Shown: positions 16,755 through 63,150, counted from the first letter of the stretch. The stretch: DNA of 64,000 bases from Candidatus Doudnabacteria bacterium (GCA_031291995.1 JARLHZ010000025.1:91965-155964); one strand, 5' to 3'. Translations and numbers: made by a program. The notes: generated by a model not told the origin, from the sequence alone.

Positions 16755-16757
16755 ATT

Positions 16758-16786: not shown

Positions 16787-16809
16787 CTTATTATTTATCA
16801 GCTAATTTT

Positions 16810-42191: not shown

Positions 42192-42596
42192 ATGAACAAA
42201 GCAAAAAATGTAGATGAATACATTACTAGAACCCCAAAGGAAGGGCAAGGCAAGCTGAAACAGCTTCGTGCGCTTATCAAAAAGATTGCTCCGGATGCGG
42301 AAGAACGAATCAGTTACGGGATGCCATTCTACGATTACAAAGGGCGGCTGGTTTATTTTGCCGCCATGCGAGGGTATATTGGACTTTACATTCCTCCGCC
42401 CATAATTGCCGATCATGCTAAGGAATTAAAGATATACGTGACCACCAAGTCCGCAATACACTTACCTCCTACAAAACTTCCCTTCGCTCTTATCAAAAAG
42501 AAAAAGAAAAAGGGTCAGGAGCAATTATCCCGAAATGCGCAAATCAAAAAATACCCTTGCGGGTATTTTTTACATGCAACCGTTCTTAACGGCTAA
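42192..42596 (+). CDS. DUF1801 (YdhG-like) domain protein
   Basis: ISYGMPFYDYKGRLVYFAAMRGYIGLY pattern; C-terminus runs through the terminator hairpin. Confidence 0.55.
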   Translation: MNKAKNVDEYITRTPKEGQGKLKQLRALIKKIAPDAEERISYGMPFYDYKGRLVYFAAMRGYIGLYIPPPIIADHAKELKIYVTTKSAIHLPPTKLPFALIKKKKKKGQEQLSRNAQIKKYPCGYFLHATVLNG

Positions 42597-42697
42597 ATAG
42601 TGATTAGAAAAGCTTAAACATTACTGCTTAAACGTACAACACCTAATGTTCACGTCACAAATTGTTTCAAGAAGCGCTAATTTTCGAAAAAATTAAC
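42566..42697. repeat. Direct repeat copy A (about 132 bp), preceded by intrinsic-terminator hairpin ATACCCTTGCGGGTAT
   Basis: TTTTTACATGC...TTAACGGCTAAATAGTGATTAGAAA...ATTACTGC...ACAACACC.AATGT...GCTAATTTTCGAAAAAATTAAC shared with 43866..43999. Confidence 0.8.
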
Positions 42698-43865: not shown

Positions 43866-43999
43866 GTTTTTACATGCGATTTTAACCTTTAACGGCTAAA
43901 TAGTGATTAGAAATAGTTAAGCATTACTGCCTAACAGCACAACACCGAATGTAATGCGTCAAAGTTGATTCAAGAACGCTAATTTTCGAAAAAATTAAC
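43866..43999. repeat. Direct repeat copy B (about 134 bp), preceded by terminator hairpin AACCACCCGTGAGGGTGGTT
   Basis: Aligned by eye to copy A, roughly 80% identity. Confidence 0.8.
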
Positions 44000-44651: not shown

Positions 44652-45491
44652 TTAAGTTAATGATACTTGATTTCGCTGCCGGTCGGCAAATGCTGACGGC
44701 GGCATTTTTAATGATGTGTGGATTCTGTAGTGATTGTAGCTATGGATAAGGAGGTAGATTTCGGCGGTCAGTTCCCCTAAGGTCTTAAACCTCCCCGGAT
44801 CACCTAAGTCAGTTTTAAACTTACCATAGAACGATTCCTGGTAGCCGTTTTCCCAAGGGCTGGATTTACGACTCATGGAAATTGTAATGCCGGCTTGTTC
44901 TGCAAGCCCGCAGTAAGTTTGAGACTTGTATTCCTGTCCTTGGTCGGAATGCAGGTATTTGGCGGCTGGGTGTTTTTCTAAAGCGTCAATTAAAGCCAGT
45001 AAAATTAACTGGCTGCTATGCGCGGTCCAGACTGACCAGCCGACAACCTCTCTGGTAAATAAATCTATTATCGTCGCCAGATAAACAAACCGGCCGTGGA
45101 ATGGTATGTAGGTAAAGTCACTGACCCAGACAATGCCTTCATGTTCAGGGAACGGAATCAGCAATAACCAATTCTGGTAGGGTGCGACAATTTGTCCTAA
45201 ATCCCGCTTCTTTGTTAGCTTTTTACCCCTCCTACGATAAGGCTTAATGCCAAACAGCTTCATGACGCGCCGGACTCTTTTTTTGTTTACTCCCAATACC
45301 GGAGCTAATCGTTTGTGGCCATAGCTTGGGTGGTCATGGAGGGTTTGTTCAATGCGGATTTTAAGAAGCCAGTCTTTTTGAGGAAGTGCCGGTTCGTAAT
45401 ACAGGCTGGCCCTACTGACTCCCAGACTTTTAGCCAATTCGGTCTTAGTCGGATTTTCAAGGTGCATAGACTCAGCCAGCTCCTTAACCAA
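44652..45491 (-). CDS. IS3-family transposase OrfB (rve/DDE integrase domain)
   Basis: 279 aa; DDE integrase-fold region (WVSDFTYIPF... HSDQGQEY...). Confidence 0.8.
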   Translation of the reverse strand: MVKELAESMHLENPTKTELAKSLGVSRASLYYEPALPQKDWLLKIRIEQTLHDHPSYGHKRLAPVLGVNKKRVRRVMKLFGIKPYRRRGKKLTKKRDLGQIVAPYQNWLLLIPFPEHEGIVWVSDFTYIPFHGRFVYLATIIDLFTREVVGWSVWTAHSSQLILLALIDALEKHPAAKYLHSDQGQEYKSQTYCGLAEQAGITISMSRKSSPWENGYQESFYGKFKTDLGDPGRFKTLGELTAEIYLLIHSYNHYRIHTSLKMPPSAFADRQRNQVSLT

Positions 45492-45750
45492 GTTCCTTTT
45501 TTTCCGCCAATGACAGTTTGACTGTCAGTCGGCCGATAATCTCGTGCAGGGTTTGGTTCTCCCGCTTTAGTCGGGACAGTTCAATCACCGAGGGCGGCGC
45601 GGTAACTCCCTTGGCTATCCAGCCGTAGATAGTCTGGGTGGACAAGCCATGTTCCTCGGCGGCTTGGGTGACACTGACGCCTTCTTCCTTAATGCGTTTT
45701 AAAATTTGCTGTTTGACTTCCAGGCTGACTTTGTATTTGCCTTTGGGCAT
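45484..45750 (-). CDS. IS3-family transposase OrfA (HTH)
   Basis: 88 aa HTH plus leucine-zipper-like; overlaps orfB by 8 nt around GGAAAAAAAG (minus strand, plus-strand 45496-45504). Confidence 0.8.
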   Translation of the reverse strand: MPKGKYKVSLEVKQQILKRIKEEGVSVTQAAEEHGLSTQTIYGWIAKGVTAPPSVIELSRLKRENQTLHEIIGRLTVKLSLAEKKELG

Positions 45751-45814
45751 AGTTAGAAATTCCTTTCTAACCTAATTATACCTCAGACTAAGTGTCTTAA
45801 ATTTGGGGTACCGG

Positions 45815-47005
45815 TCATAATTTGGTTTGATATTGTTTGTGAGTAGCGCGTTTCCATTCCATTTCTACTTGATATTTTCTGGATTGCAGAATATTTTGAT
45901 GTTCGTCTTGAGTAAAATGCACCTGGCCATTTTTGTCTACGCCAAAATGCTCCAGATAAATATCGTAATCGGACAAATAAAAGTCTGGTTTATATTGTCT
46001 GTATTCGCTATTGGAAGTTTTGTACTTATACGGAGCTTCGTATTGGTAATTAACGCCGTTAACACATAAAAAGTTGGCAACCATTACTTCCTGCTGGCTT
46101 TTTACCAATTCTTTTTTTAAAGTAAGATTCTGCTTGGTTTTAACATATTTATAATAGTCATCCAGATTTTTAAAGCCGGGCTTTAAAATTACCGGCTTAA
46201 AATAATAAGCAAAGTATTCCACTGCCCGCTGTAGATAGCTAGGGTTTTTTAGTAGCAAGCTAAATTGTTCGTCAAGAAAATTTTGTCTGGCTGTACTGCT
46301 AGGAAAAGCCAGATCCGGCCTTTGGTCAAGAGCTTTGCCAATAACTGACAAGCCAAAGCTATGGAAAGTTTGGGCTTTAACGCTGTTTTCCCCGAATTTT
46401 TTACTTATCCTATCGGCCAATTCTTCTACGGCCCTGCCGGTAAAAGACAAAAGCAAAATATCTTCCGGTTTAATTTTTACCCGCTCCAAGATGTATGCTA
46501 ATTTGCCCATTATGGTAGTTGTCTTGCCGGTGCCTGCGCCAGCTACTAATAATGTGTTGTCTTCGTCCGAAGCAATGGCCGTAACTTGGTCCTTGTTATT
46601 TTGGATTTGTTTCGCGCTTAGTATTTGCTTAATGGTAGACGATTCACGCTGAACAAAGTTTTCGTTAAATTTGTCAATAAACAGTTCCCTGCCTTTGTTA
46701 TAAAAGTCCGCAAAGTCGGTAACCAGTTTTTTAAATTGATCCCGCGTTTTAACTTTATACAATAACGGACTGAACATTTCGGCCAGATATTGATATTTGG
46801 TTTTCCACAACCGATATTGTCGATTGCTAATATACCAATTTTGCCTGCTTAAGCCGTTAAATTCGCCCAAGGCGTTCTTAAACTCCGGCTCGTGCTTCTT
46901 TAAGGCTAATAACAAATTAAGCGAGCGCCTATTTTTTAGGAACTCGCTAAATTCATAGGCTCCAAATATTAAAATGGCAATTATTAATACGGAAAAAAAT
47001 AACAT
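45815..47005 (-). pseudogene. UvrD/PcrA-like helicase N-terminal fragment, apparently truncated by the IS3 insertion
   Basis: Walker A LLVAGAGTGKTTTIMGK but only about 250 aa after it and no motifs IV-VI; its TGA stop is the terminal TCA/TGA of the IS3 end. Confidence 0.5.
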
Positions 47006-47018
47006 AAATATTTACATT

Positions 47019-47300
47019 CTAAATCTTTTCAGTATGTTTGCATTTTGGATAGCTTGTACAACCATAAAATTCTCCAAACTTGCCGGAACGTATTTGCATT
47101 GGACTGCCGCAAGCAGAGCAAATTTTGTCAGTCGAGTTTTCCGAAACCGTACCATTTTTTAATTTATTCTTGCGTTTTAAATAGTCTAAAAAATCCGGTG
47201 CTAATTCGGCAATAATATAAAAAACAGCCAAAACAATTAGCCAAGGCCAAAAAGTTTTTAACACCGACCAAAATATATTACCAACAAAATCAGGTTGCAT
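47019..47300 (-). CDS. Small membrane protein with topoisomerase-type C4 zinc ribbon
   Basis: N-terminal TM then CSACGSPMQIRSGKFGEFYGCTSYPKC (zf-C4_Topoisom-like). Confidence 0.5.
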   Translation of the reverse strand: MQPDFVGNIFWSVLKTFWPWLIVLAVFYIIAELAPDFLDYLKRKNKLKNGTVSENSTDKICSACGSPMQIRSGKFGEFYGCTSYPKCKHTEKI

Positions 47301-47599
47301 AAGTCACCTTAATTAATTGCTCGGCCAATTGTTCCTTTAGCCCGTCTTCTTCCACTTCCATTCTTATTTCGTCCTCTAAATCTTCAAGTGGCATAGGTTT
47401 TAACTACTTGATCTACCTTTTCCGGTTGTAATTATTTCCAAGGCTAAATAAGGCCCAAATGAAACCAACCAGGGTTAAGAAAACCGCGAGCCCTTTATGC
47501 CCGGTTTTAAAAAGAGCGTATATTAAGCAACAAAATGCTACAAAAAGTATGAAGTCTAACATTGGAGAATAATTACAATTTTAATGGCACAAAAGCCTT

Positions 47600-47935
47600 C
47601 TATTTGCCTCTGTTTTTTACTTCATAAATTTCCCAGGCATAATCAAATGGAAGAAGTGAGCATAAATAATTTCCGTCTTTGTCTTTGGGCGTATATTCAT
47701 CAACAATATCCAAAATTGCGCTTTGCTCTTCTTCGGTAAGTTCTCGGCCAACTATTTCCTCCAACTCAAGAAATTGCTCGTCTATAATTCCAATATTCCC
47801 CTCTATCCTCTGGTCTTCGTCCGAAGCCTGCTTCTGCGCCACTTTGTGTTCTTCCATAACCACCCAAAATACATCCTCAAGACTCATTTTGGGAAGCATG
47901 GTATCACTCGCAAATTTTTGTGCTTTGTTCTTCAT
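47600..47935 (-). CDS. Hypothetical acidic protein (111 aa)
   Basis: Co-directional with the downstream defence-like block; no recognisable motif. Confidence 0.4.
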   Translation of the reverse strand: MKNKAQKFASDTMLPKMSLEDVFWVVMEEHKVAQKQASDEDQRIEGNIGIIDEQFLELEEIVGRELTEEEQSAILDIVDEYTPKDKDGNYLCSLLPFDYAWEIYEVKNRGK

Positions 47936-47948
47936 ATTTTTTATAATT

Positions 47949-48251
47949 TTAATTTGGCAGTCTGCCTTCTTTTTCTCTTATAGGATAGGTTTCGGACTTT
48001 AAACAGCGGTTTATAATATTGTCCATATGCCAGTAAGTATTGCCGTTATAATCAAAGTAAACATTTTTTGTTGAGTAAAAATTTGCTTCGTAGCCGTAAG
48101 TATCTATATGGTTTGCTAAAGCTAAAAATAAGTTATTATCAACATTTTCCTGGACTATATACTCATGCGGCCAAGTCTTTGCGTAGTTCACCGCAAATAT
48201 CCACTTGGAGTTTTCTATAAATTGTTTTACAGCGTCTGGAAATTGCTTCAT
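47949..48251 (-). CDS. Hypothetical protein (100 aa)
   Basis: 13-nt spacing from previous gene; no recognisable motif. Confidence 0.4.
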   Translation of the reverse strand: MKQFPDAVKQFIENSKWIFAVNYAKTWPHEYIVQENVDNNLFLALANHIDTYGYEANFYSTKNVYFDYNGNTYWHMDNIINRCLKSETYPIREKEGRLPN

Positions 48252-48277
48252 CCAAATTTTTCTTTACTAATCAATTA

Positions 48278-49291
48278 TTATGCTTGGCTTTCGTATGACT
48301 TATGGACGGCAGCAATCACCTCAGGCAATGATTCAGCTGCTATGGTAAAATCCCATCCGCCGCCTTTATCTATGGCCATTCCTTTGGGCAGCTGGCCGCC
48401 AATTGCCCAGGTCCAACCCCAAATTTCACGAGAACCTTCGCCGTACTGAACAAAAATTTTAGACCTGTTTTCACTCCGGCGCAATGATACGAACCCGTTT
48501 TTTAAAGTATACCGGTAGATATCATCGCCAAACCCGTTCACAGTGGTTAAAAATTTACCAAGTACGCTGCCTTTTTCTGGAGCATTGGTCGAGGCCAAAA
48601 AGTCTGACAACTTTTCTGCACGAACTTCGCTCGACCTATGTGAAACGCCAATATTCTTCTTAGTCTCAACTCCGAATAACTTTGGAATCATTATTTCATA
48701 TTCGTTAAACTTGTAATAATCAAGTTGTATTGCGTATATGTCAAACTGGCTGTTTCGGTTGACATAGATAATTAAATCTTTTAACCTATCTTCCATTTCG
48801 TCCATTAATATTACAAATTTAAGATTACCCTCAAATAGATTGCGGCGCATTGCTTCTAAAAGCTCGTCTGTTTTTTCTTCATCAAGACTAAAAAATTCCG
48901 TAACCTTCTGTTTAAAACTCAAATTAAATTTTATCTCGACTTCCTCATCTAAAAGATGAATAAATTCGTTAAAATCACCTTGGTGTTTCCAAAGAGCCGC
49001 TCCATAATCAAGTGCTTGGGCAACTACCGTCCTTTTGTCCGGATTTTTAAATAGTTTGGTTTCCACAATATAAATATCTCCGTCCTTATCTATCGCCAAA
49101 GCATCGATCGACCCGGACTCTGTTGGAAACTCACGCGCAGCAACAAAGAGATGCTTGTCTTCTTCAATTTCATATACTGGAATTGACTCTGGATTTTGAT
49201 GGATATAATTTTGAAGGTAATCTTCCTTTTCAAAATTAGATTTGTCTATTTTTTTGGCGTTCATACCGCCTTGGGAAACAATAATACTCAT
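48278..49291 (-). CDS. Hypothetical protein with N-terminal PD-(D/E)XK-like (Hjc/NucS-like) motif
   Basis: GSIDALAIDKDGDIYIVETKL (D...D/E-x-K arrangement) near residue 60-80; C-terminal domain unassigned. Confidence 0.45.
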   Translation of the reverse strand: MSIIVSQGGMNAKKIDKSNFEKEDYLQNYIHQNPESIPVYEIEEDKHLFVAAREFPTESGSIDALAIDKDGDIYIVETKLFKNPDKRTVVAQALDYGAALWKHQGDFNEFIHLLDEEVEIKFNLSFKQKVTEFFSLDEEKTDELLEAMRRNLFEGNLKFVILMDEMEDRLKDLIIYVNRNSQFDIYAIQLDYYKFNEYEIMIPKLFGVETKKNIGVSHRSSEVRAEKLSDFLASTNAPEKGSVLGKFLTTVNGFGDDIYRYTLKNGFVSLRRSENRSKIFVQYGEGSREIWGWTWAIGGQLPKGMAIDKGGGWDFTIAAESLPEVIAAVHKSYESQA

Positions 49292-49382
49292 ACATTATCT
49301 ATTAATTGTGAATTTAATATTTACGCCAATGGCTATAGTTGATCCCGTCTTCTAAATCTTCATATTCAACGGACATAGGGTA

Positions 49383-50120
49383 TTATTTTTCTACTGCTTG
49401 GGCTTTGGCCCTATATTGGCAAAATTCACATTCAAGATTGGATTCGGGCAAATCGGATAGGTTTAAGCAATCGTAAATATTAAAAATTGTTTGCTCTACC
49501 CAAGAGTCACTGCCGGTATAAGGGATTAGTTTGGCATCAAATTCCAGTACGCCGTTAAAACCTGCTCTGTCTTTCTTTCCATTCACGTAAAAAAAGTAGC
49601 CGGTATTGGAAACTTTTAGGCCATTTTGCCTTAACAACCACTGGTAGACTTCCATTTGCCTGCGGTAGGAGTTGTGCCATTTGGCGTCAGTTAGTTCTAC
49701 TTCGCCCTCCTTGCTGGTGGCCTTGTAATCCACCACAATATATTCTCCCGCCGAATTTTTCCACAAATCATCTATGGCCCCATAAACTAGCATATTGATT
49801 TTTTTGTGGAGGCACTGCACGCCTGTAAAGTTATGCCGCCACTGGTCCAAAAGTTCATGAGCCACAGGAACAGCGTCCAGGCCGTAAGTTTCCATAAGCG
49901 GATGTTTGGTTCCGTTGGCGCGGTATACATCAAACTCTTTTTTTAGCAAAGCGTCCACAGCCACATTCAAAGTAAATGCTGGGCCAGATGGCCTGGAAAT
50001 CCCCAACCGCCGGTCCATATAAAAACAGCGCGGACAATCCAAAAACATATCAATCTTTGATCGGCTCAATTTAAAAGGTTTATCAGACGCAGGGTTGTAC
50101 AAATTGTTTATTCTAGGCAT
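49383..50120 (-). CDS. Cas4-like / RecB-family PD-(D/E)XK nuclease with four-cysteine cluster
   Basis: N-terminal CPRCFY and C-terminal CEFCQY cysteine pairs; GAIDDL, IVVDYKAT and QMEVYQWL (QhxxY) nuclease motifs. Confidence 0.6.
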   Translation of the reverse strand: MPRINNLYNPASDKPFKLSRSKIDMFLDCPRCFYMDRRLGISRPSGPAFTLNVAVDALLKKEFDVYRANGTKHPLMETYGLDAVPVAHELLDQWRHNFTGVQCLHKKINMLVYGAIDDLWKNSAGEYIVVDYKATSKEGEVELTDAKWHNSYRRQMEVYQWLLRQNGLKVSNTGYFFYVNGKKDRAGFNGVLEFDAKLIPYTGSDSWVEQTIFNIYDCLNLSDLPESNLECEFCQYRAKAQAVEK

Positions 50121-50180
50121 TTACTTTCCTTAAAATTTTCATAAATTTAACAATACTTAATGGGTTATATCCCCCACCGC

Positions 50181-51344
50181 TTATTCGGTTTTATTGGTAT
50201 GGGAAAGCTCTTCAAACTTAGCAGCCATTGTAGGGTTGCCGCGCGTTAGTCTTTTGATTGTCAAATCTTCTGCTTTATCATTAGCGAGACGGAGATTATT
50301 TTCAGACGATAAGAGAGCCTCTTTGGTTTTCTGAAGATGGTCTATGGTTTTGTCAATTTCATCGATTGCTGTTTTAAAACGGTTAGAAGCAATCTGGTAA
50401 TTTTTAGAAAAGCCCTCTTTAAATTTATTAATATTGTCCTCAAAGTTTGTGATGTCAACATTTTGGTTCCTCACCAAAGCAAGCTCGGCTTTGTATTTAA
50501 GTGAATTCATGGCCGAGTTGCGCAGCAGGGTTATCATTGGGATAAAAAATTGTGGGCGGACCACATACATTTTGGGATGTTTATGGGATACATCAACAAT
50601 GCCGGTATTATATAGTTCATTTTCGGCTTCCAAAAGCGTAACAAGGACGGCGTATTCGCACTTCTTCTCTGTCCGATCTTTATCAAGCTCGCGTAAAAAA
50701 TCTTCATTTTTGTGTTTTGTAGCGGTTTCGTCGCCTTCATTTTTCATCTCAAACATAATAGAAATGATTTCATTGCCGACCTCATCATTTTCGCGATAAA
50801 TGTAATCACCCTTACTGCCGGATTTTGTATTGTTGTCTTTTTCGAAATACGCATTCTGAAAACCGGTCGCGCGAAGCTTGTTAAACTCGGTTTCGCAGTG
50901 CTGTTCAAGGGTTTCGCCAACCATCTTCGTTGAGAGTTTAAGCTTCATATCCTTACGGAAAGCAATTTCGTCGTCCTTCATCTTTATAATGTCGTCCTTG
51001 GTCCTGAGTTCGGCGGCAAGTTCGTCACGTTCTTTCGCAACTTTATTGACCGCTTCTGTGACTGCGAGTTTTTTCTCTATTTCTGCATTACTGTTTTTTG
51101 ATTTTATTTCGGCTAATTCAGCTTCCTTCTTCGCAATGTCCTTTTGCAATGCATTTGTAATATTTGCCTCTGCAAGTTTAACAGCAGTTTCTTTATTTTT
51201 TTCCAACATTTCTATACGCTCATGCAGTTCTTTTTCAAACTCATGATTGCGGACTTGCTTCAAAATATCGGCAAATCCTGCTTCGTCGACTTTAAAAGCT
51301 TTTTTACAATGTGGACATATAATTTCATTCATATTTTTGAACAT
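50181..51344 (-). CDS. DUF2130-like coiled-coil protein with N-terminal CxxC
   Basis: [36 protein letters not shown] start and long coiled-coil. Confidence 0.5.
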
Positions 51345-51359
51345 TAATTTTGCAACATC

Positions 51360-54323
51360 CTATATGCTCATTTTATTAAGTACGTGCTCAAACACGCGCT
51401 CTTGCACAAACTTTTTTAATTCCGGATTTTGGTCGAGTTTTTGGTACAGACTAAAATGATTATCCAATACTCCAACAAGCTCGTCCTGAAAGAGTTGGTC
51501 AAATTTTAACTTGGCTGCGTCTTTGCTGTTATTTTTTACGGAGCCTTTTAATACATGGTTATTTACCAAACGCGAACTTAAATCGTTTAAAATTACCCGG
51601 TCGCCGTCGTTAAAATTTGTTCCGTAGCGCTCATTAATTTCTTTAATGATTCTTGAAAGAGGGTCTATTGCCGCCTCGGCAATACGGCCTTCCCCTCCCC
51701 CGCCCATAGGATAAATAATTCCCTCTGTATTGTCTAATTGTATATTTACCTTGCCCTTGTTCTCAATCCTGTAAGTTTCCATATCTATTGCATCCAATAC
51801 CTCCACCGGCAACGGATTTTCCCGCTTAGGCGATTTTTTGATTAAAAATTTTAAAAAGATGAACAGCTTTTCCAGTTGTGGATCTTTAAAAGTAATTATT
51901 TGGGAAATAAAGGCATACTTTTTTAAATATTCCGCAACCGTGGTTTTAAAGCTTTCCATTTCTTCTTCTGTCAGGTTCTCGTCATTTATCCTGGCTACCA
52001 CATTGTCAATAATATGGTTAAGTTTATCCGGCGTTGCTCCACCCAAGTATTCTTCAGTAAACCCATTGATTTCAAAGTCGGTAAAAAATTTAAACCCACG
52101 CACTTCGCGTTCCAAATTGTGCAAAATGTTCGGGTCCGTCGCTTCAGACAGCACCGTGGTAGTGTAATACGGTTGGAAAGCTTCTTTAATGTCGTCCGTC
52201 TCATTTACGAAATCCAAAACAAAAGTTTCGTCTTTGCCGTACGTAGTTCTGTTTAAACGCGAAAGTGTTTGAACCGCTCTAACATCGCTGAGTTTTTTGT
52301 CCACATACATAACCGTTAGCATAGGCTGGTCAAAACCGGTTTGAAATTTTTCCGCCACAATCAAAAATTTATTTTCGTCCTTCTTAAATTCTTCAGCCGT
52401 TTGGCTTTCCGGGACTTTATTCATTTGACCTTCGGTATATTCCAGTTTTGTATCCACGTCTTTTACAGTGCCCGAAAAAGCCACCAAGGCTTTATGATTG
52501 TAGCCTTTTTCTTTAAGGTATTTATCAAAAGCAATTTTGTAACGAACCGCGTGCAAACGGGACTTTGTAACCACCATTGCTTTTGCGCGTCCCGCAATGA
52601 GTAATGCAATTTTTTCTTCAAAATGTTCCACCATAATAGCCGTTTTTTTATCAATGGCATGCTCATGGCGCTCTACATAGCCAATCATAAGCCTTTGGGC
52701 TTTTTTCTTATCAAATTCCGGGTCGTCTTCTATTTTTTTGAGTAAGCCAAAATAAGTTTCGTAAGTGGTGTAGTTTTTTAGCACATCCAAAATAAACTTT
52801 TCTTCTATGGCCTGCTTCATGGAATACAAAGAAAACGGAATAAATTTACCGGTAACCGCGTCCTTGTCTCCAAATAGTTCCAACGTCTTCTGCTTTGGCG
52901 TGGCGGTAAAAGCAAAAAATGAAAGGTTCGGGGAACTGACCTTTCTAGCCTTCATGCGCTCAATAATTTGGTCTTCAACTGTTTTAAAAACATGCTCTTC
53001 TTTTTCGGCTTGCTTTTCGGCTTCATCTAAAGTTAATACCTGACGTAAATCCGCCGCGGACTCCCCGGACTGTGAAGAATGCGCTTCGTCTATAATTACC
53101 GCAAATTTTTTTCCTTCAACTTTTTCTATTGTCTCTACAATAACCGGGAATTTCTGCAAAGTGCTTGTTAGTATTCTAACCCCGGTTTCCAAGCCCTCGC
53201 GCAGTTCGGCGGATGTTTCCACGTGCTTAACCAAACCTTTAACCTGGCTAAAATCTGTTACCGTATTAGAAAGTTGCCTGTCTAAAACCCGGCGGTCAGT
53301 TACTACAATAACGCCGTCAAATACATTTTTATTGGAATCGTCATGAAGTTCTGCAAGACGGTGCGCCACCCAGGCAATGGTATTGCTTTTGCCGGACCCG
53401 GCGCTATGTTGAATTAAATAATTTTTGCCGGTTCCATTTGCCTGCGCGTCTACAACAATTCTCTTTACGGTTTCTAATTGATGATACCGTGGAAAGATTA
53501 ATTTTTCTTCCTTTTTCTTTTTGCCGTTCTTGTCTTCTTTTTCTTCCGTCACTTCCTGAATGAAATTGCCTATTAAATCAAACACACTGTCCTTGGAAAA
53601 AATATCTTCCCACAAATAATGCGTTTTGTATTTTCCTTCCGGCGCTTCCGGATTTTTAGATGAGTTTTTGTCGCCTTTATTAAATGGCAAGAAAACCGTG
53701 GAAAGACCCGAAAGCCGGGTGGTCATAAACGCCAAGTCTGTATCTACCGCAAAATGAGTAAAGCAGCGCTTAAAAGATAAAAGTTTTTCTTTATTGTCGC
53801 GGTCGGTTTTATATTGTGATATGGCGTTAATAACATTTTGCCCGGTAAACTGATTTTTAAGCTCTATTGTAAACACCGGTAAGCCATTTACAAAAATAAC
53901 CATATCTATGGAATTTTCATTCTTGCCACTATATTTAACCTGCCTCATAACACTTAAAATATTCCCGGCATAATCGGCAACCGTCTCCGGGTTCCTGTCA
54001 TTCTGCGGTTTAAAATAAGCAAGCTTAACCCGCACTCCCCTGTCTGTAATGCCCTCACGAAGCACGCTTAACAAACCACGCGAACTAATTTCTTCATCCA
54101 CCCGAGCCAAAAACCTCTCCGCGACATCTTCCCCATACTGCTCAACCAGCTTCTCCCAAGCCTCATTTTGAGTCTCCAAAACAAACTCCAAAACCAGCTC
54201 TGCATCCATACAGAGCTCTTTATTAAAAGTTGAATTTAATCTAGATTTATACTTATGAAGCTTTATCAGCTCCTGCTCTATAAATTCCTCAAAACCCGAT
54301 TCTTTAGTGTTAGATTTTGTCAT
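51360..54323 (-). CDS. hsdR: Type I restriction enzyme R subunit
   Basis: 987 aa; Walker A HSAGSGKSNT, DEAH box VIIDEAHSSQ, helicase C-terminal motifs, N-terminal nuclease region. Confidence 0.9.
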   Translation of the reverse strand: MTKSNTKESGFEEFIEQELIKLHKYKSRLNSTFNKELCMDAELVLEFVLETQNEAWEKLVEQYGEDVAERFLARVDEEISSRGLLSVLREGITDRGVRVKLAYFKPQNDRNPETVADYAGNILSVMRQVKYSGKNENSIDMVIFVNGLPVFTIELKNQFTGQNVINAISQYKTDRDNKEKLLSFKRCFTHFAVDTDLAFMTTRLSGLSTVFLPFNKGDKNSSKNPEAPEGKYKTHYLWEDIFSKDSVFDLIGNFIQEVTEEKEDKNGKKKKEEKLIFPRYHQLETVKRIVVDAQANGTGKNYLIQHSAGSGKSNTIAWVAHRLAELHDDSNKNVFDGVIVVTDRRVLDRQLSNTVTDFSQVKGLVKHVETSAELREGLETGVRILTSTLQKFPVIVETIEKVEGKKFAVIIDEAHSSQSGESAADLRQVLTLDEAEKQAEKEEHVFKTVEDQIIERMKARKVSSPNLSFFAFTATPKQKTLELFGDKDAVTGKFIPFSLYSMKQAIEEKFILDVLKNYTTYETYFGLLKKIEDDPEFDKKKAQRLMIGYVERHEHAIDKKTAIMVEHFEEKIALLIAGRAKAMVVTKSRLHAVRYKIAFDKYLKEKGYNHKALVAFSGTVKDVDTKLEYTEGQMNKVPESQTAEEFKKDENKFLIVAEKFQTGFDQPMLTVMYVDKKLSDVRAVQTLSRLNRTTYGKDETFVLDFVNETDDIKEAFQPYYTTTVLSEATDPNILHNLEREVRGFKFFTDFEINGFTEEYLGGATPDKLNHIIDNVVARINDENLTEEEMESFKTTVAEYLKKYAFISQIITFKDPQLEKLFIFLKFLIKKSPKRENPLPVEVLDAIDMETYRIENKGKVNIQLDNTEGIIYPMGGGGEGRIAEAAIDPLSRIIKEINERYGTNFNDGDRVILNDLSSRLVNNHVLKGSVKNNSKDAAKLKFDQLFQDELVGVLDNHFSLYQKLDQNPELKKFVQERVFEHVLNKMSI

Positions 54324-54433
54324 AATCTTATAAAATACTTATAACGGTTACATAAGAAAGGCCTATATTTATTGCATTTTTTTGATAATTTTTCTAAAAT
54401 TGGTTTAACTTGTTACATAAGATAGTTTAAAAA

Positions 54434-54462
54434 TTGACAGGCGGGATACATTCGTTTACAAT
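54434..54462 (+). promoter_or_regulatory. Consensus sigma70-type promoter TTGACA-N17-TACAAT (plus strand)
   Basis: TTGACA 54434-54439, 17-nt spacer, TACAAT 54457-54462; AGGTG RBS and ATG at 54482 follow. Confidence 0.45.
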
Positions 54463-54541
54463 AGGTATATGCAGGTGCTTGATGGCCATTGAGCCATTAA
54501 GTATGCGGGCATACATTGAATGTATACCCCGCAGGCCTGCT

Positions 54542-55207
54542 TTATCTCCATTTTACTCTCCATTCGTTGAACCGGCTATTGCCCACGGCAAGCCGGATTT
54601 TTTGTACCTCCGTAGCTAATCGGCCTTTTATTTTATCGGAACCTTTATAAACCGAACTGCCAAGCAAAACATCAGCCATTTGAACTAATAATACGCCATG
54701 GCTGTCCACTTGCAAAACATCCCACAGCTGAGGAACAACTGCCGGAAGTGTAGAAATAGAATGGGTCGGTGCCTTTTTTGGCTGCCTTAAATAATCCGCG
54801 ATTAAGGTTGTCTTTTCTTCAGCTTTTAAATTTTTTTGAAGCAGCATTTTAATATAACGCAAATAACATTCCCAGGATTCCAAATAGTCTTTCGGCGCCT
54901 GGAATTTAACGTCATTTAAGTCTACAAAAAAAGAACAAAATCTCCAATTGGGTTCGTTTAACAAAATTTTCAAACAATTTAAATAATAAGGCAGAGATTT
55001 TTGCGTAACGGAGGTAAATTTAAATTCAACCCTACTACTGTCTTTTTTTAGCGCGTTGCATAACCCTTCATACTCGCTATGAAGCGCGGTAATAAGTTTG
55101 TCCGGGAACGAATGGACAATCGCGCCCACCGCAAAATACCTTACAGCCCGATTCTGCACATTAAGCGTACCCGACTCATCCAAAAAACAAAAAGTTGGTT
55201 TAATCAT
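54542..55207 (-). CDS. DUF3800-like protein
   Basis: N-terminal CFLDESGT (DESG start typical of DUF3800); 221 aa; embedded between hsdS and hsdR. Confidence 0.5.
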   Translation of the reverse strand: MIKPTFCFLDESGTLNVQNRAVRYFAVGAIVHSFPDKLITALHSEYEGLCNALKKDSSRVEFKFTSVTQKSLPYYLNCLKILLNEPNWRFCSFFVDLNDVKFQAPKDYLESWECYLRYIKMLLQKNLKAEEKTTLIADYLRQPKKAPTHSISTLPAVVPQLWDVLQVDSHGVLLVQMADVLLGSSVYKGSDKIKGRLATEVQKIRLAVGNSRFNEWRVKWR

Positions 55208-56521
55208 TTATACTTTCACTTTCCCCGTAACCACATTGGAAATTAGGGAAGATTTAAATTTGTTTAATAATTCAATTGATTTTTCTGTTTTTTCTAAAAT
55301 AGCATTAAATGTTGAAATTTTTTCATCTAAGAACTTAATAATTAAATTTTGTTCGTCTTTGCTTGGATAAATCATTTCCAACGAACTTAAGTCAAAAGGA
55401 GTGATTGCTGGGTAGCCAATGCCTTTTGAATTAAGAATGACTTGACTAATAAATCTATCGGACTGTAAGTAATAAAAAAGGTATTTTGGCAATAAGTTTT
55501 TACCAGGAGTTAATACGGCAAAACCAGTAGATGCAATAGTATTTGTATCGAGTTTATCAAAATAAGCAATGGCCTTTAAGTAAGTTCTAACTGTAGCGAT
55601 TATTGAATCGCCAACACTCACAACTCTACGAGCCCTACTTGGTGCTTTTTCAAAAGTAATTTCATTTTCTATATTTGACGCCTCTTCTCCATCCACAGAC
55701 CCAATGTCAAAATATTTAAAAGAGAAGTCGGGATCTGTGTTCTCTGAAAGAGATTTTTTATTCATTTGGGAGACTCTTTTTATTTTTTCAATATTCCATC
55801 CTTTCGGAATTTTGCCAATCCATTCGACATCGCTTTCAACATACTCAGCTTTTGGGTCAAGGCCTTTTGACACGGCATTATTAATAACAGCCGTGCGTTT
55901 TTCGCGCAGGAGTTCTATTAACTTTTGCTTTTTTTCAATAATTTGGTCAATGGTTGCAATTTTTTCGTCGAGATAATTTGCAATTTTTTCTTGCTCATTA
56001 ATATTTGGGATTAATGTTGGCAAATATTTAAAATTGCTAAAATCTAGCGTTTGTCTAACCCCTCCACCCATCCCATAATAAACTTTCTGAATGTCGTAGG
56101 CGTGAAATAAATAGTAGGTGAATTTTGAGTTTAATTTTTCACTCAATTGCAACGCTAAATAAGCTGAAGTAATTATACCTGGCTCATCAAAGTTCATATA
56201 GCCGACTCTTAAACTTTTTTTGTCATTTTGTAAGTCAGTCAGACGAAATACAATATTCCCTTTATTTATAACTTGATAAGTATTGAATGATTCTGGTAGT
56301 AATCCCTCGTTTGAGTCGATATCTTTTTGAATTATTTTACCATAGCTTAATGATAAGAGATTATTACATTTTCCCTCAATATTATTTTGTTCATTTTCAA
56401 AAGCGACTGATCGCAAGGGTGTTACATCCCAATCTTTAGGAATTTTGCCAATCCACTCAACGCCCGAGTTTTTGTATTCGGGATATTTTTTATATTCTTT
56501 TTTTAGCTGTAATTTAGGCAT
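55208..56521 (-). CDS. hsdS: Type I restriction-modification specificity subunit (two target-recognition domains)
   Basis: 437 aa; two TRDs separated by conserved helical spacer (IDQIIEKKQKLIELLREKR) and C-terminal repeat of the same. Confidence 0.85.
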   Translation of the reverse strand: MPKLQLKKEYKKYPEYKNSGVEWIGKIPKDWDVTPLRSVAFENEQNNIEGKCNNLLSLSYGKIIQKDIDSNEGLLPESFNTYQVINKGNIVFRLTDLQNDKKSLRVGYMNFDEPGIITSAYLALQLSEKLNSKFTYYLFHAYDIQKVYYGMGGGVRQTLDFSNFKYLPTLIPNINEQEKIANYLDEKIATIDQIIEKKQKLIELLREKRTAVINNAVSKGLDPKAEYVESDVEWIGKIPKGWNIEKIKRVSQMNKKSLSENTDPDFSFKYFDIGSVDGEEASNIENEITFEKAPSRARRVVSVGDSIIATVRTYLKAIAYFDKLDTNTIASTGFAVLTPGKNLLPKYLFYYLQSDRFISQVILNSKGIGYPAITPFDLSSLEMIYPSKDEQNLIIKFLDEKISTFNAILEKTEKSIELLNKFKSSLISNVVTGKVKV

Positions 56522-57732
56522 ATTTGTAAATATTGTGGAAAACGGTACGGGGTCAAGACATTTTGTGATTGAGCCTGTGGAAAAGTTTCCATTAAGGGAT
56601 TAAAGAGGTTGTCCAGGATTAACATCGGAAAGCGGCAGATCTGGTCGGCATTGTATATGCCAAGAGAGTCAAGTTTTTCTTTAGGCGACATTCCGTTCAT
56701 GCCAATACCGTCAGAGGCGCGACGGTTGTAGTAAAAATTCCAGTACTGTCCTTCTATCAGAAAATCGGAGTTACTGTTAATGTGTTCCCCCCTGGGGCAG
56801 TAAAATTCTTCGTCGTCGATCCTGTGCGTCCGTTCCACCAGGTTGTTCTTCCACTTTGCTCCGCCTGTCCACTCGGCCGCGGCTCCCAGCGGCTTTAACT
56901 GTTCGTTCCAATCCGCAAGCTTCCTCTCTGAAGCGGAAAAGAATTCCGCGCCGCCGTCCATTCGCGTGTTAATATTGTTTTGTATGTTATGGGCTCTCAG
57001 CCAGAGAATTACGGTTTGTAAAAACTTTAATCCATAAAAAGAACTTAAGGTATACGACCAGGCCAAGAATCTGGTTTTGGTCTTGGCGTCAACAATCGTC
57101 CATTGGTATTTGGGCAGAGCAAGCTTTTGGCTTTTAAACTTCTGATAAATTTCTTTCGGCAAAGCGTGTTGGTCTAAAATTTCCTTGGTATCGTACTGTA
57201 ATTGCTCAAATGCCCCAATTTCCGCATAGTTGTACAAGGCCCTGCGTTCCCCGTTAACGGTCCTAATCTTTTTCCCTTTTAGCCCCAGTCTTTTGTAAAC
57301 TCCCTTGATTTTGGAAAAAGTAAAGGCCTCCATGTCCAGCCCGGCTATTTTAAAATGCTTGTAGAGGCGTTTAAAGCCGTAGTTTAATTTCAAATGTTTC
57401 TCTGTGATGGTTTTTTCGGTATTTTCGTCAGCCGTCCGCTTGTTGGTCTTGGGCCTTCTGGACTCAAACTTTAAAAATTCAAACAGCTTTAAATCATCAG
57501 TTTTAATCTTTTCGTTGCAGGACAGCAGGCAAAGGACTTTAGAGTCAGACTGATTTTTACAAAGTTTAATAATTTCATTAACGGTATTTTTATGGCAGCC
57601 GATATCCCGGGCAATGTCTTTTTGGGGGATGTGGTCGGCAAAGTAATGGCGGGCGATTTTCAGCCGGGTGATGATCGGCCCTTCGGTTTTGCAATTGTCC
57701 TTGTAACTCATTACAATACTTTTACAGGTCAT
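56503..57732 (-). CDS. DDE (rve-type) transposase, IS481/IS30-like single-ORF
   Basis: N-terminal HTH; WTIVDAK, RMDGGAEF, NLVERTHRIDDEEF = D,D,E catalytic triad spacing; stop overlaps hsdS start by 19 nt. Confidence 0.65.
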   Translation of the reverse strand: MTCKSIVMSYKDNCKTEGPIITRLKIARHYFADHIPQKDIARDIGCHKNTVNEIIKLCKNQSDSKVLCLLSCNEKIKTDDLKLFEFLKFESRRPKTNKRTADENTEKTITEKHLKLNYGFKRLYKHFKIAGLDMEAFTFSKIKGVYKRLGLKGKKIRTVNGERRALYNYAEIGAFEQLQYDTKEILDQHALPKEIYQKFKSQKLALPKYQWTIVDAKTKTRFLAWSYTLSSFYGLKFLQTVILWLRAHNIQNNINTRMDGGAEFFSASERKLADWNEQLKPLGAAAEWTGGAKWKNNLVERTHRIDDEEFYCPRGEHINSNSDFLIEGQYWNFYYNRRASDGIGMNGMSPKEKLDSLGIYNADQICRFPMLILDNLFNPLMETFPQAQSQNVLTPYRFPQYLQICLNYS

Positions 57733-58069: not shown

Positions 58070-58834
58070 TTATGAACCAGCTGGTTTTGGACCATCCATT
58101 TCTCTGTTCCAACAAATAAAATTTTTAATTTTCTGAATATCGTAAATAAACAAGCCTTGTGAGGTTAGAGACGCTAATTCACTGGCCACTCTTCGAGGAG
58201 TGGAAAAAATAAAGACCTTTTTACCATTTTGGAGCAACTGCTCAATAGGCCCCGCAAAATCGCTGTCTCCGCTCCAAAGCACGAAACAATCCGCTTCCTT
58301 TTTCTCAAAAGCAAGCATCATGTCCCGGCCAATTTCTACATCAAAATTGCATTTGCGATCTTCAATAAAGTAAGTCCCGAGTTTGTTTAACTCTCCCAGT
58401 TGCGCGTTTAGGTACTCAACCACTTCAACCTTTAACCGCCTTAAAAGCGAAGGCCGAATAAAACTTTTAAGGATATCAGTAGATGACGGAGAAATACTGG
58501 AGACATCAATAGACTTTTGCATAATTTTTACAGGTTTTGTAATACAGCCAGGTCCAAAAGCCTTAGTAAGGTCCTTATTTTCGTGTTCAGACTCTTTATC
58601 GCCAATTAAAGTACCGTTATAAATCTTAATTTCCTTGACAGCGCCAAAGGAGTCAAAAAACTGTTTGACCCTAAAAGGCTCTACATGCCAACCCAACTTA
58701 TCGGCCCACGGTCTAACATTGGCAAAATCGATATAAATTTTCGTAGAAACGCTTAAAAGCGTATCCATCTCGGAAATTCTTTCCGGGAACATTTGCGCAA
58801 GTAAGTCAATTTTTACCGTTTTGGCTTTAAACAT
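58070..58834 (-). CDS. NYN-domain (LabA/PIN-like) protein
   Basis: YIDFANV ... ADCFVLWSGDSDFAGPIEQLLQNGKKVFIFS matching NYN acidic-residue pattern. Confidence 0.75.
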   Translation of the reverse strand: MFKAKTVKIDLLAQMFPERISEMDTLLSVSTKIYIDFANVRPWADKLGWHVEPFRVKQFFDSFGAVKEIKIYNGTLIGDKESEHENKDLTKAFGPGCITKPVKIMQKSIDVSSISPSSTDILKSFIRPSLLRRLKVEVVEYLNAQLGELNKLGTYFIEDRKCNFDVEIGRDMMLAFEKKEADCFVLWSGDSDFAGPIEQLLQNGKKVFIFSTPRRVASELASLTSQGLFIYDIQKIKNFICWNREMDGPKPAGS

Positions 58835-59001
58835 AATAATGTGCTATTAGTAATGGCTGGCAATAATAACTTGGAATATGCTATGGTGTCCCTCCGGAGA
58901 ATCCGGAACTTAAGCTGTAAATAACCATTTTCCTAGACGCCGCCATTCTTGAATACCTAAGGGGATGTGATTCCTTGTCGCCCTCCCCTTTTTTATTTAT
59001 A

Positions 59002-60996
59002 TTATAGCTGCTTTAATAAATCCAATAGCTCGTTTTCCACCTTTTCTATATCTGTCTCTATGGCTTCAAGACTCCTTGGGGCTTCGTATTTGTAGAAGTG
59101 GCGGGTAAAGGGAATTTCGTAGCCGACAATACCAACTTTGCCGTCTTTGTGGTCGACTATCGATGTGTTTATCCAGACATCAGGAACGTAAGGCTTAACC
59201 TCTTTTTCAAAATATTGTTTAATGTCCATTTCGTAAGGCACATTTTCATAGTCGCGCAGTTCGCTGTCGGGTTCTATATTACCGTCTTTGTCGGTGCATA
59301 TAACAGCATTTTCATCACGCTCGCCCAGAGCATCTACAACAATTTTAATAATTGTAGCGCTTTTTTTAAGATGTTTAAAATACGTTTGTATTTTTTGGAC
59401 AAACAATTCCCTACTGTTTATGGGAGCTTTAAAATCCTTGGCTAACTGGCCAAAAATAGTAATAACTTCCTCCATTTCTTTGGCTGGAAGTTTTTTAAAG
59501 GCGTTTTCGTGTGATATTTTGTCCAGGGAGTCTTTAGTAACTTCAAACTTAAGCTTTAGCGGCCGTTCAATAGTTATTTGTCTGTAAGCAAAATCCGTGG
59601 TTATAAAGATTTTAGAGAATTCACCCTCCTCGTACTTTTCGTATAGCTCAACAATTTTCTTTTTAGACTCCGCGTCTATTTCATGTCTCTTACTACCAAG
59701 ACTTTTCCGAGTTTTTTTAAAAAACGTACGGCCGTCTATAAGTTGAACTTTGCCTTTTCTTTCCTTAGATTTTCTGTTGGTAACAAACCATAGGTAAGTG
59801 TTTATGCCTGTGTTATAAAAAAGTTGGTCCGGCAATGCTACAATGGCTTCCAATAAGTCTTTTTCCAGTATCCACCTGCGGATTTCGCTTTCGCCACTTC
59901 CGGCGTCTCCGGTAAACAGTGGAGAACCATTATGAACAATAGCTATGCGGGAGCCACCGTCTTTTTCCGGTTTCATTTTGGAAATAAGGTGCTGTAAAAA
60001 CAAAAGCTGGCCATCGGAAATACGGGGCGTACCCGCGCCAAACCTGCCGGCGTAACCGCGGGCGGCTTCGCGTTCTACAGAGTCTTTGTCTTTTTTCCAG
60101 TCAACCCCATAGGGTGGATTGGAAAGCCCGTAGTCGAAAACCTCGCCAAAAAATTGGTCGTTGGCAAGCGTGCTCGCTTTGGAATGGTCTTTCTCTCCGC
60201 CGCGAATAAGGTCAGGGTCGTCACCCTTTATAAGCATGTCGGACTTAGCCATGGCGTAGGTAATGGAGTTTAACTCTTGACCGTAGAGAAAGATATCGGC
60301 CTCCTTGTTAATTTTAGTAAGAATGTAATCTTTAGACACACTTAACATTCCACCGGTGCCGCACGCAGGATCATATATTTTTTTAATAACATGGGGTTTT
60401 TGAAGATCCTTAATGTCCGGTGAAAAAAGCAATTCAGTCATAAGTTCTATTACATCGCGCGGGGTGTAGTGTTCTCCGGCAGTTTCATTGGACATTTCAG
60501 AAAATTTGCGGAGCAACTCTTCAAAAATATGCCCCATTTGGTAGTTGTCCACCTTGGAAGGATGAAAAGCAACGCCGTTTAATATTTGAATAATTTCGAA
60601 TAATAAATTTCCGCCTTCTAATCTCTCTAGCTGTTTGTTAAAATCAAACTTTTCAAAAATATCCTGAATATTTTTGCTATAACCGTTTATATACTGCTTA
60701 AAGTTTTTTGCCAAATGTTTTGGTTCGCCAAGGATCGTTTTAAAATCATAATCGGAAATATTATAAAAAGCCGTGCCCGAAGTTTTTTTAAGAATTGGGT
60801 CCAGATCGTTTATTTTGCCTTTGTATTCGTTGTACTTTTCCAAAACTTTTGGTTTTGTATCCGCGAGAATAGAATCCAGGCGTTTTAAGACCACCAGCGG
60901 AAGTATTACGTCCTGGTATTCGTGCTGTTTCCAACCTCCGCGCAAGATATCGGCAATATTCGAGATCATTGATGTTTTTTGGCTAAAATTTTCCAT
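59002..60996 (-). CDS. hsdM: Type I restriction-modification DNA methyltransferase subunit
   Basis: HsdM_N-like start, GEHYTPRDVIELM, motif I IYDPACGTGGML, motif IV NPPYG; 664 aa with C-terminal extension. Confidence 0.9.
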   Translation of the reverse strand: MENFSQKTSMISNIADILRGGWKQHEYQDVILPLVVLKRLDSILADTKPKVLEKYNEYKGKINDLDPILKKTSGTAFYNISDYDFKTILGEPKHLAKNFKQYINGYSKNIQDIFEKFDFNKQLERLEGGNLLFEIIQILNGVAFHPSKVDNYQMGHIFEELLRKFSEMSNETAGEHYTPRDVIELMTELLFSPDIKDLQKPHVIKKIYDPACGTGGMLSVSKDYILTKINKEADIFLYGQELNSITYAMAKSDMLIKGDDPDLIRGGEKDHSKASTLANDQFFGEVFDYGLSNPPYGVDWKKDKDSVEREAARGYAGRFGAGTPRISDGQLLFLQHLISKMKPEKDGGSRIAIVHNGSPLFTGDAGSGESEIRRWILEKDLLEAIVALPDQLFYNTGINTYLWFVTNRKSKERKGKVQLIDGRTFFKKTRKSLGSKRHEIDAESKKKIVELYEKYEEGEFSKIFITTDFAYRQITIERPLKLKFEVTKDSLDKISHENAFKKLPAKEMEEVITIFGQLAKDFKAPINSRELFVQKIQTYFKHLKKSATIIKIVVDALGERDENAVICTDKDGNIEPDSELRDYENVPYEMDIKQYFEKEVKPYVPDVWINTSIVDHKDGKVGIVGYEIPFTRHFYKYEAPRSLEAIETDIEKVENELLDLLKQL

Positions 60997-62289: not shown

Positions 62290-62928
62290 GAGAAATTGGC
62301 TTTCAAAGGAAAACGAGATTTGGGTTTACTCGCAAGCCGGGGGGAAGGTTACAGCTTTTATTTTTGATTCCTCAGGCAGCCTACCGCCTTTGAAATGGAC
62401 TGGCGTCCAACCCGACGCCGCTTGTCCAATACACTCAGCAAGACAATTGCCTCTGCAGAAGTTTTGTCTCACTTTGTTGAATGTAGGGTGATTGCAGTTT
62501 ATTTGCACCCGCTTTAAGAACAATACCTTTAATTAAGGTTCCGGGAACCGCCTTACTCCACCCTATTGTGTTTCGGGCATGCGTTACTTCTTGTTCTATG
62601 AGAAGTTGTTCCGCCATTTCCTATGAAAGCCGACACTAAATAAGACGTGTGCGGAAATTTTTTGTTACATTTTTCCTAAAGCTTCTTCGGTTTCAAACAT
62701 TCCAATATAGGTGTGCTTTTGCGCTTCAAAAGCGGCAAAAAGTTCCGTTTCCGCCAGCGGCACTCCCCGCTACGCGACAAAAAGCTCGACAAAAAGGGGT
62801 CTGGAGCTATTATTTAAAATTCGATAGGAGAGTTTAAATCAGGTAGCGTCAAAGCGTCGGAACCCCGACGCAGGCTGGTCGGGGCTGGTTGAACTCCGAC
62901 GTTCCAGATAAAGCCCTGGAAGTCGGAG

Positions 62929-62963
62929 CAGGCCGATGACCTACTCCTTACCATGGAGTTGCT
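62929..62963 (-). repeat. Partial duplicate (about 35 nt) of the tRNA-Thr D-loop/anticodon-arm region
   Basis: GATGACCTACTCCTTACCATGGAGTTGCTCTACCA identical to 63101-63135 inside the tRNA. Confidence 0.8.
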
Positions 62964-63074
62964 CTACCAACCCCGACGCCCCTTTGGGGGTCGGGGCTCC
63001 GACCTTTGACGCCGCGAGGTTAAAGCTGGCAGCGTCAAAGCGTCGGAGCTGAGCAACCAATAAAAAAATTTTCC

Positions 63075-63150
63075 TGGAGCCGTTGATCGGAATTGAACCG
63101 ATGACCTACTCCTTACCATGGAGTTGCTCTACCAGCTGAGCTACAACGGC
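63075..63150 (-). tRNA. tRNA-Thr (anticodon GGU), CCA encoded
   Basis: Minus-strand cloverleaf: acceptor GCCGTTG/CAACGGC, D-arm GCTC-AGCTGGTA-GAGC, anticodon arm ACTCC-ATGGTAA-GGAGT, T-arm ATCGG-TTCAATT-CCGAT, discriminator U, CCA. Confidence 0.8.

Follow-up and report, generated by a model that had tools for sequence, protein, structure and literature searches.

A block of five co-directional genes downstream of hsdR in a Candidatus Doudnabacteria defense island is probably a mosaic of separately inherited units

Results

We analyzed a 64-kb stretch of DNA (the window, to which all positions refer unless another locus is named) from a metagenome-assembled genome of Candidatus Doudnabacteria (Patescibacteria), in which hsdR is followed on the same strand by five genes: one for a protein of the DUF2130 family, one for a 245-aa RecB/Cas4-type nuclease, and three for proteins that we call, by their lengths, p337, p100, and p111. 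A preliminary description of this DNA had read the five as a single operon-like defense system without a name. Our analysis does not support that reading: because the genes are not co-conserved in related loci, and because a synteny breakpoint lies between the DUF2130 gene and the nuclease gene, the block is probably a defense-island mosaic of three separately inherited, co-directional units. The first would comprise the Type I restriction-modification (RM) operon with a nested NYN gene, a gene for a 409-aa protein (p409), a DUF3800 gene, and the trailing DUF2130 gene; the second, the stand-alone RecB/Cas4-type nuclease; and the third, p337, a protein of the PDC-S11 type, with p100 as an optional and p111 as a lineage-specific component. 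The genes are as follows.

51360-54323, minus strand: hsdR, 987 aa, directly upstream of the DUF2130 gene
50181-51344, minus strand: DUF2130 protein, 387 aa
49383-50120, minus strand: RecB/Cas4-type PD-(D/E)XK nuclease, 245 aa
48278-49291, minus strand: p337, PDC-S11-type nuclease, 337 aa
47949-48251, minus strand: p100, small protein without a Pfam model, 100 aa
47600-47935, minus strand: p111, acidic small protein, 111 aa

That five co-directional genes with gaps of 13-91 nt follow hsdR was borne out. Read from the sequence, the intergenic distances from hsdR to p111 are, in order, 15, 60, 91, 26, and 13 nt, the first of which becomes 27 nt with the 383-aa start that gene callers chose for the DUF2130 protein. 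The motifs quoted in the preliminary description were all found (CPHC in the DUF2130 protein; CPRC, CEFC, GAIDDL, VVDYK, and QMEVY in the nuclease; IDALAIDKDGDIYIVETK in p337), and its domain calls hold as well (Pfam DUF2130, E 1.9e-87; PDDEXK_1, E 4.6e-13; no Pfam match for p337, p100, or p111), as does the acidic character of p111 (pI 4.38, with 26 D+E versus 13 K+R).

Judging from identical copies elsewhere and from substitution rates against a diverged relative, locus L084 (GCA_003151625.1), all five open reading frames (ORFs) are real coding sequences. The same gene order is present on three more metagenome contigs, all 100% identical, which represent the same population as the window. 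In the comparison with L084, the nuclease and p111 have ratios of nonsynonymous to synonymous substitution rates (dN/dS) of 0.055 and 0.052, respectively, and the proportions of nonsynonymous (pN) and synonymous (pS) differences in p100 are 0.12 and 0.80; by these measures, purifying selection acts strongly on all three genes. The p337 gene has diverged more (pN 0.25 in the N-terminal domain and 0.55 in the C-terminal domain, compared with 0.06-0.12 for its neighbors), which suggests that an allele has been replaced. A scan of 46900-54600 for sigma-70 promoters and intrinsic terminators returned site counts equal to those of shuffled sequence, and therefore says nothing about operon structure.

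The five genes are not conserved as neighbors

Conservation of the genes as neighbors, which had been named beforehand as the test of a five-gene system, failed in about 190 related loci. When 80 genome loci of the nuclease were searched by tblastn, none of DUF2130, p337, p100, p111, or hsdR was detected within 10 kb. Likewise, the nuclease, p337, p100, and p111 occur in none of 19 DUF2130 loci. Nor do any of the 91 p337 loci, 80 of them from metagenomes and 11 from viral contigs, contain DUF2130 or p111. We found p100 in 5 of these 91 loci; it directly follows p337 in 5/53 of those that have a called downstream gene, a position that p111 holds in 0/53.

The breakpoint became apparent from L084, in which the order is nuclease, an inserted FokI-domain gene, a p337 relative, p100, and p111 (identities of 92% for the nuclease, 58% for the p337 N-domain, 80% for p100, and 82% for p111). 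Nucleotide homology between the window and L084 runs from 50084, inside the 5' end of the nuclease gene, to about 47364. The genes upstream in L084 encode an integrase, an SNF2 helicase, a Type ISP methylase-nuclease, and an 861-aa protein; neither DUF2130 nor a Type I RM system is among them. Since the upstream genes differ while the homology starts within the nuclease gene, the breakpoint falls between DUF2130 and the nuclease.

L084 also carries a 3-kb insertion (L084 positions 14168-17279) with an AAA_21 ATPase, DUF4276, a Peptidase_S66 gene, and a second, diverged Cas4-like 5' fragment (residues 1-66), flanked by direct repeats of ~32 bp that both map to window positions 47364-47395. This fragment brought up the nuclease gene as a possible integration target, although it lies inside the 3-kb insertion and not at an element end.

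The DUF2130 gene belongs with upstream restriction genes

The DUF2130 protein matches Pfam PF09903 with 293.3 bits (gathering threshold 26.7) over profile positions 4-254 of 255. The family has been assigned to the PD-(D/E)XK superfamily, its function being not known (PMC3424549). In an alignment of proteins from Patescibacteria, Proteobacteria, and Firmicutes, the N-terminal CPxC (CPHC at residues 10-13 in the window), D180, and E199-M-K201 are invariant, and the coiled coil of the window protein is ~20-90 residues shorter than those of its relatives. As judged from these sequences, the protein is a coiled coil with a C-terminal PD-(D/E)XK core in which the D...(D/E)xK signature is present. 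A PDB sequence search returned no real relatives, and PHROGs only weak matches of function not known.

Relatives with 76-87% identity are found across many Patescibacteria lineages, and others with 55-62% identity on Bradyrhizobium, Ralstonia, Lactococcus, and Enterobacter plasmids; such identities point to a protein that is very highly conserved and moves between phyla. What precedes it, at distances of 3-17 nt, varies. In L183, hsdR lies 17 nt ahead of DUF2130, as in the window gene order; a GmrSD/HNH gene precedes it by 4-8 nt in L175-178 and L181-182, a T5orf172 gene by 8 nt in L169-174 (a pair seen in varied contexts), a helicase with a zinc ribbon in L179, and an OLD-type endonuclease gene by 3 nt in a methylase/helicase island of an Enterobacter plasmid. 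The neighbors in Ralstonia and Lactococcus are AAA or TrlF ATPases, and the contexts in L167 and L212 look neutral. From these neighborhoods we conclude that DUF2130 belongs with the upstream restriction genes and not with the genes downstream.

An identical pair of a T5orf172/MUG113 protein (240 aa) and DUF2130 recurs in 31 blocks of our collection index, which suggests that this pair is a mobile cassette. In L181, a DUF2779 protein follows DUF2130 and was considered as a member of the 245-aa nuclease family; this was rejected, as BLASTP found no similarity, and L181 is therefore not a recurrence of the DUF2130-nuclease pair.

We did not find the position of DUF2130 behind restriction or ATPase-nuclease genes described in the literature on the family, and the version of PADLOC searched contains no DUF2130 model. 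Its recurrence in that position, together with its absence from that version, constitutes a testable lead.

The 245-aa nuclease has no fixed partner

The 245-aa nuclease matches PDDEXK_1 (PF12705) with 50.1 bits (gathering threshold 22) over profile positions 2-244 of 247, and stays below the cut-offs for Cas4 proper (PF01930, 18.9 versus 22.7 bits; TIGR00372, 29.7 versus 65 bits). Its CPRC and CEFC motifs occupy residues 29-32 and 231-234, and in 18 relatives D117, D131, K133, Q155, and Y159 are invariant, as are C29, C32, C231, and C234. No solved structure was detectable by a PDB sequence search with the family profile. In PHROGs, the nuclease matches a phrog of function unknown (E 6e-16) and, weakly, exonuclease and Cas4 phrogs.

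Homologue searches returned at least 8000 significant matches; among the best 120 of them identities are 60-68%, with few closer. The family is present in at least 594 species genomes and on only 6 viral contigs. That the genes might be ordinary phage recombination genes was not supported, tblastn of 50,697 GenBank phages having detected neither the nuclease nor the phage protein related to p111 that is described below. When the five genes on each side were clustered, no neighbor family recurred in more than 8 of 75 loci, and most of the 145 immediate neighbors serve housekeeping or DNA repair (tRNA synthetases, gyrase, PolA, UDG, Ogt, TruB). As far as sequences and contexts tell, the nuclease belongs to a very large stand-alone family that has no fixed partner and a history separate from that of its present neighbors. 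A role as a stand-alone effector, which the preliminary description had given to it, is doubtful for a family found mostly amid such genes. The same description had noted the lack of a CRISPR array and of cas1/cas2. TRF and Rfam searches of the 64-kb window returned no CRISPR array, and no cas-like family is found among the gene products scanned around the block, the rest of the window lying outside that scan for cas genes.

p337 belongs to the candidate class PDC-S11

One member of the block already falls into a named candidate class: p337 and 25/25 of its relatives tested match PADLOC PDC-S11. The window protein aligns with profile positions 13-193 of 358, that is, with the N-terminal half only (E 2.2e-16; the library has no curated cut-off), and all 26 family members tested match (PDLC04916, best E 1e-21). 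The PDC systems are 145 candidates, picked out by 'guilt-by-embedding' from genes that lie within BREX, DISARM, or Type I RM systems (bioRxiv 10.1101/2024.01.29.577857). As PDC-S11 is a candidate only, membership says nothing about mechanism.

Across the family, the N-terminal ~215 aa are 70-78% identical and the C-terminal third is variable; E54, D63, E77, and K79 are invariant, the last two forming E77-x-K79. The structural model, which is of moderate confidence (predicted local distance difference test score 63.6), matches NucS, FokI, nicking and restriction endonucleases, Shedu, and Can2, and the N-domain is accordingly predicted to have a NucS/restriction-endonuclease fold. Frequent neighbors of p337 are serine recombinases, integrases, ParB-methylases, DUF2779 proteins, and hsdM. 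PHROGs holds no match for p337, p100, or p111.

A possible looser link between restriction systems and the nuclease

Several observations weigh against a mosaic of independent units. The gaps in the block are short, no convincing terminator separates the genes, and co-transcription from the RM promoter is possible. Furthermore, co-occurrence was determined by tblastn at fixed thresholds, which very diverged analogues would escape. We read the contexts of six nuclease relatives at ≥68% identity, the window included, a small sample. In 4/6 of them the nuclease gene is closely preceded by a restriction system of the same orientation: Type I in the window, Type ISP in L084, Type ISP-like in L085, and Type III in L204. 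In 3 of those 4 a nuclease with a NucS fold lies downstream. Finally, a Cas4-like gene is found ≤8 kb from p337 in 8/80 metagenome loci, compared with roughly 1-2% expected for two independently placed single-copy genes in a genome of ~1 Mb. The settings of the six relatives have two possible readings: a loose functional link between restriction systems, the Cas4-like nuclease, and a second nuclease, or, in this lineage, a hotspot beside the nuclease gene at which restriction systems insert.

One rival explanation builds on these observations: the nuclease, p337, p100, p111, and perhaps a 49-aa peptide encoded downstream would be a functional module able to settle behind any resident restriction system, with the Cas4-like enzyme processing restriction ends and p337 adding a second cut. 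The gene order kept in L084 while both flanks differ, and the strong purifying selection on the nuclease, p100, and p111, also speak for it. However, a FokI-domain gene separates the nuclease from p337 in L084; where both genes were found together (8 loci) they are never adjacent, and distance, intervening genes, and strand vary; and p337 occurs in 0/80 of the nuclease loci. The much greater divergence of p337 suggests allele replacement, and synteny between two related genomes can reflect vertical inheritance. On balance we regard such a module as unlikely and retain the mosaic of three units.

In L204 (positions 3929-10827), Type III Mod and Res are followed by the nuclease (70% identity), a YhcG_C/NucS_C nuclease, and an HNH protein, and fragments of a 3-dmu-9_3-mt gene surround the block, as if it had been inserted there. 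L085 adjoins terminase-like, excisionase-like, and amidase genes, and the nuclease of L208 has a housekeeping setting, between two HhH-GPD glycosylases.

p100, p111, and a 49-aa ORF

p100 belongs to an uncharacterized family of 529 cluster representatives (E ≤ 1e-3) with the motif WPHEY...YW...INRC, in which H29, Y73, W74, and R82 are invariant. Its fold is confidently predicted, and no solved structure matches the model. Some family members are fused to DUF6508 or an HD domain, but these occasional fusions do not explain p100. A limited pattern search returned no relative on viral contigs. From its occurrence in p337 loci, p100 is an optional, facultative partner of p337.

p111 has no family match in Pfam, PADLOC, NCBIfam, or PHROGs. 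However, five IMG/VR viral contigs (L186, positions 5557-6357; L215-L218) encode a 266-aa protein whose most conserved region aligns with residues ~40-110 of p111 at 54-62% identity (E 1e-23 to 1e-27). The gene for this protein has the portal gene on one side and the major-head gene on the other, which is where a scaffold gene usually lies; from this gene order, the phage protein may act as a scaffold. On this homology, p111 is best described as a copy, carried by the host, of a portion of this scaffold-position protein, and it would represent a lineage-specific addition whose source is a phage head-assembly protein.

Downstream of p111 we noted one further reading frame.

47413-47562, minus strand: hydrophobic 49-aa ORF (MLDFILFVAFCCLIYALF...), two predicted membrane helices

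L084 encodes a near-identical peptide at the corresponding position. Too short for ORF lists that start at 60 aa, the ORF probably encodes a genuine small membrane protein, and it is possibly a sixth gene of the block shared by the window and L084.

A host copy of part of a phage head-assembly protein beside a candidate defense nuclease is a lead in its own right, and two explanations start from it. In the first, p337, p100, and p111 would form a phage-sensing or assembly-interfering module of Patescibacteria, and DUF2130 would, separately, be a widespread, uncatalogued accessory nuclease of restriction systems. p111 would then attach to the major head protein or the portal protein of the phage and would either disrupt the assembly of heads or signal the infection to the PDC-S11 nuclease, with p100 acting as an adaptor or regulator. 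We give this combination little credence.

In the second, to which we give slightly less still, p100, p111, and the 49-aa peptide would not serve host defense but stem from a phage or phage satellite, as its remnant or its cargo, p111 being a leftover or hijacked piece of a head-assembly gene. The homology of p111 to the protein encoded between portal and major-head genes is what such an origin would leave behind; the phage-like genes that L085 adjoins and the frequent location of p337 relatives by recombinases and phage-type methylases, with 11 on viral contigs, are in keeping with it. Yet the surroundings of the block in the window hold no further structural genes and no integrase or replication genes, p100 lacks a viral-contig relative as far as the pattern search reached, and the purifying selection on p111 as a free-standing gene in two diverged genomes argues for retained function and not for decay.

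We consider it highly improbable that the five genes together constitute a new anti-phage operon of several nucleases behind hsdR: the shared strand, the gaps of 13-91 nt, three nuclease-fold proteins in a row, the defense-island setting, and the identical arrangement on three metagenome contigs (which come from the same population) are outweighed by the missing co-conservation in ~190 related loci, the synteny breakpoint between DUF2130 and the nuclease, the many other partners of DUF2130, and the status of p337 as a catalogued single-gene candidate.

The Type I RM operon and the surrounding island

The preliminary description was right in placing the block in a defense island, with a Type I RM system, Fic, NYN, IS3, and a tRNA boundary. 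The genes upstream of hsdR that belong to this setting are the following.

59002-60996, minus strand: hsdM, HsdM_N and N6_Mtase
58070-58834, minus strand: NYN gene, embedded in the RM operon
56503-57732, minus strand: p409, 409 aa, between NYN and hsdS, no match in Pfam, PHROGs, or NCBIfam
55208-56521, minus strand: hsdS, Methylase_S
54542-55207, minus strand: DUF3800 gene, matching PADLOC PDC-M04A

hsdM, hsdS, and hsdR are found together, as in a Type I RM system. hsdR (PADLOC REase_I, E 1e-42; precomputed Pfam HSDR_N, ResIII, T1R_D3-like) is the last canonical gene of this operon, and p409 is another embedded, uncharacterized gene. In the gap between hsdM and NYN, a DUF3800-V RNA of Rfam lies at 58852-58947 on the plus strand (57.7 bits; gathering threshold 37.4), opposite to all RM genes; the DUF3800 gene is 3.6 kb away.

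At the far side of the island, by the Fic gene, part of the tRNA-Thr gene (37 nt, 100%) and an adjacent 32 nt are duplicated ~165-186 nt away (62830-62969 and 63016-63134), which looks like an attachment (att)-type scar at the island boundary. On the other side of the block, direct repeats at 42586-42697 and 43889-43999 (64 nt at 86% and 23 nt at 100%) flank a gene for a 348-aa HATPase_c/DUF4325 protein and suggest the insertion of a single-gene cassette. Between this gene and the block, the minus strand of 44652-47300 encodes a 93-aa topoisomerase-type zinc-ribbon protein and then a 396-aa helicase IV/UvrD-like protein, which has the N-terminal helicase part only and weakly resembles PADLOC PDC-S68 and GajB. 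Since the gene for the latter ends beside an element of the insertion sequence (IS) family IS3 (orfA, 45484-45750; orfB, 44652-45491), it is probably a defense helicase disrupted by the IS.

Discussion

For the mosaic of three units, which we think probable, the data show the domains, catalytic residues, folds, contexts, and missing co-conservation; the biochemical activities proposed here are inferred from invariant catalytic residues and folds, and any anti-phage role is putative. DUF2130 would be an accessory or independent DNA-cleaving effector that acts beside whichever restriction enzyme precedes it. The 245-aa nuclease would be a DNA-end-processing or repair exonuclease, its N and C termini stapled together by the four invariant cysteines, which may incidentally degrade restricted DNA; in this lineage it would lie at the edge of a site where restriction systems get swapped. 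p337 would be a DNA endonuclease whose fast-evolving C-terminal domain sets the specificity for a target or a trigger.

None of the leads overturns current understanding. Besides those given above for DUF2130 and p111, we consider the very large stand-alone family of CxxC...CxxC Cas4-type nucleases, common among Patescibacteria and without a member that has been studied or structurally solved, to be worth pursuing. More generally, co-directional, tightly spaced genes of a defense island can still be independent insertions, which calls for caution against over-reading gene order.

Comparison with known systems

The embedded and appended genes of Type I RM operons (Payne et al. 2024) are the closest precedent for the first unit; here, the nested NYN gene, p409, the DUF3800 gene, and the trailing DUF2130 gene all lie on one strand. 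In contrast to the RM-embedded candidates in PADLOC, among which it does not figure, DUF2130 follows hsdR and does not lie between hsd genes. The protein itself is a full-length match to its family (PF09903, COG4487), apart from the shorter coiled coil, and is built like RmuC-like proteins, with a coiled coil and then a PD-(D/E)XK core.

The 245-aa nuclease shares with Cas4 and AddB the RecB-type motifs (D, D-x-K, QxxxY) and four cysteines split between the termini. The cysteine pattern of Cas4 and AddB is 1+3, whereas that of the nuclease is 2+2 (CxxC...CxxC), a pattern from which sequence cannot tell an iron-sulfur cluster from zinc. Unlike Cas4, the nuclease has no CRISPR array in the window, and the contexts of its orthologues are mostly housekeeping.

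Proteins of the p337 family resemble PDC-S11 in length (~350-380 aa), and their neighborhoods, in which RM and mobile-element genes abound, vary as would those of a single-gene candidate; the window protein, however, has a short and divergent C-terminal region. The fold of the catalytic domain likens p337 to the restriction endonuclease FokI and to N.BspD6I. It differs from the endonuclease NucS in having no NucS N-terminal domain, and scores 22 bits against a cut-off of 216 for the NucS equivalog.

Proteins that mimic phage scaffolds occur in phage satellites, an example being CpmB of SaPI. p111 resembles these in being small, free-standing, and homologous to part of a phage protein in scaffold position, and differs in having no satellite genes nearby. 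Taken together, the families of the block are known or already catalogued, and their arrangement is that of a typical defense-island patchwork.

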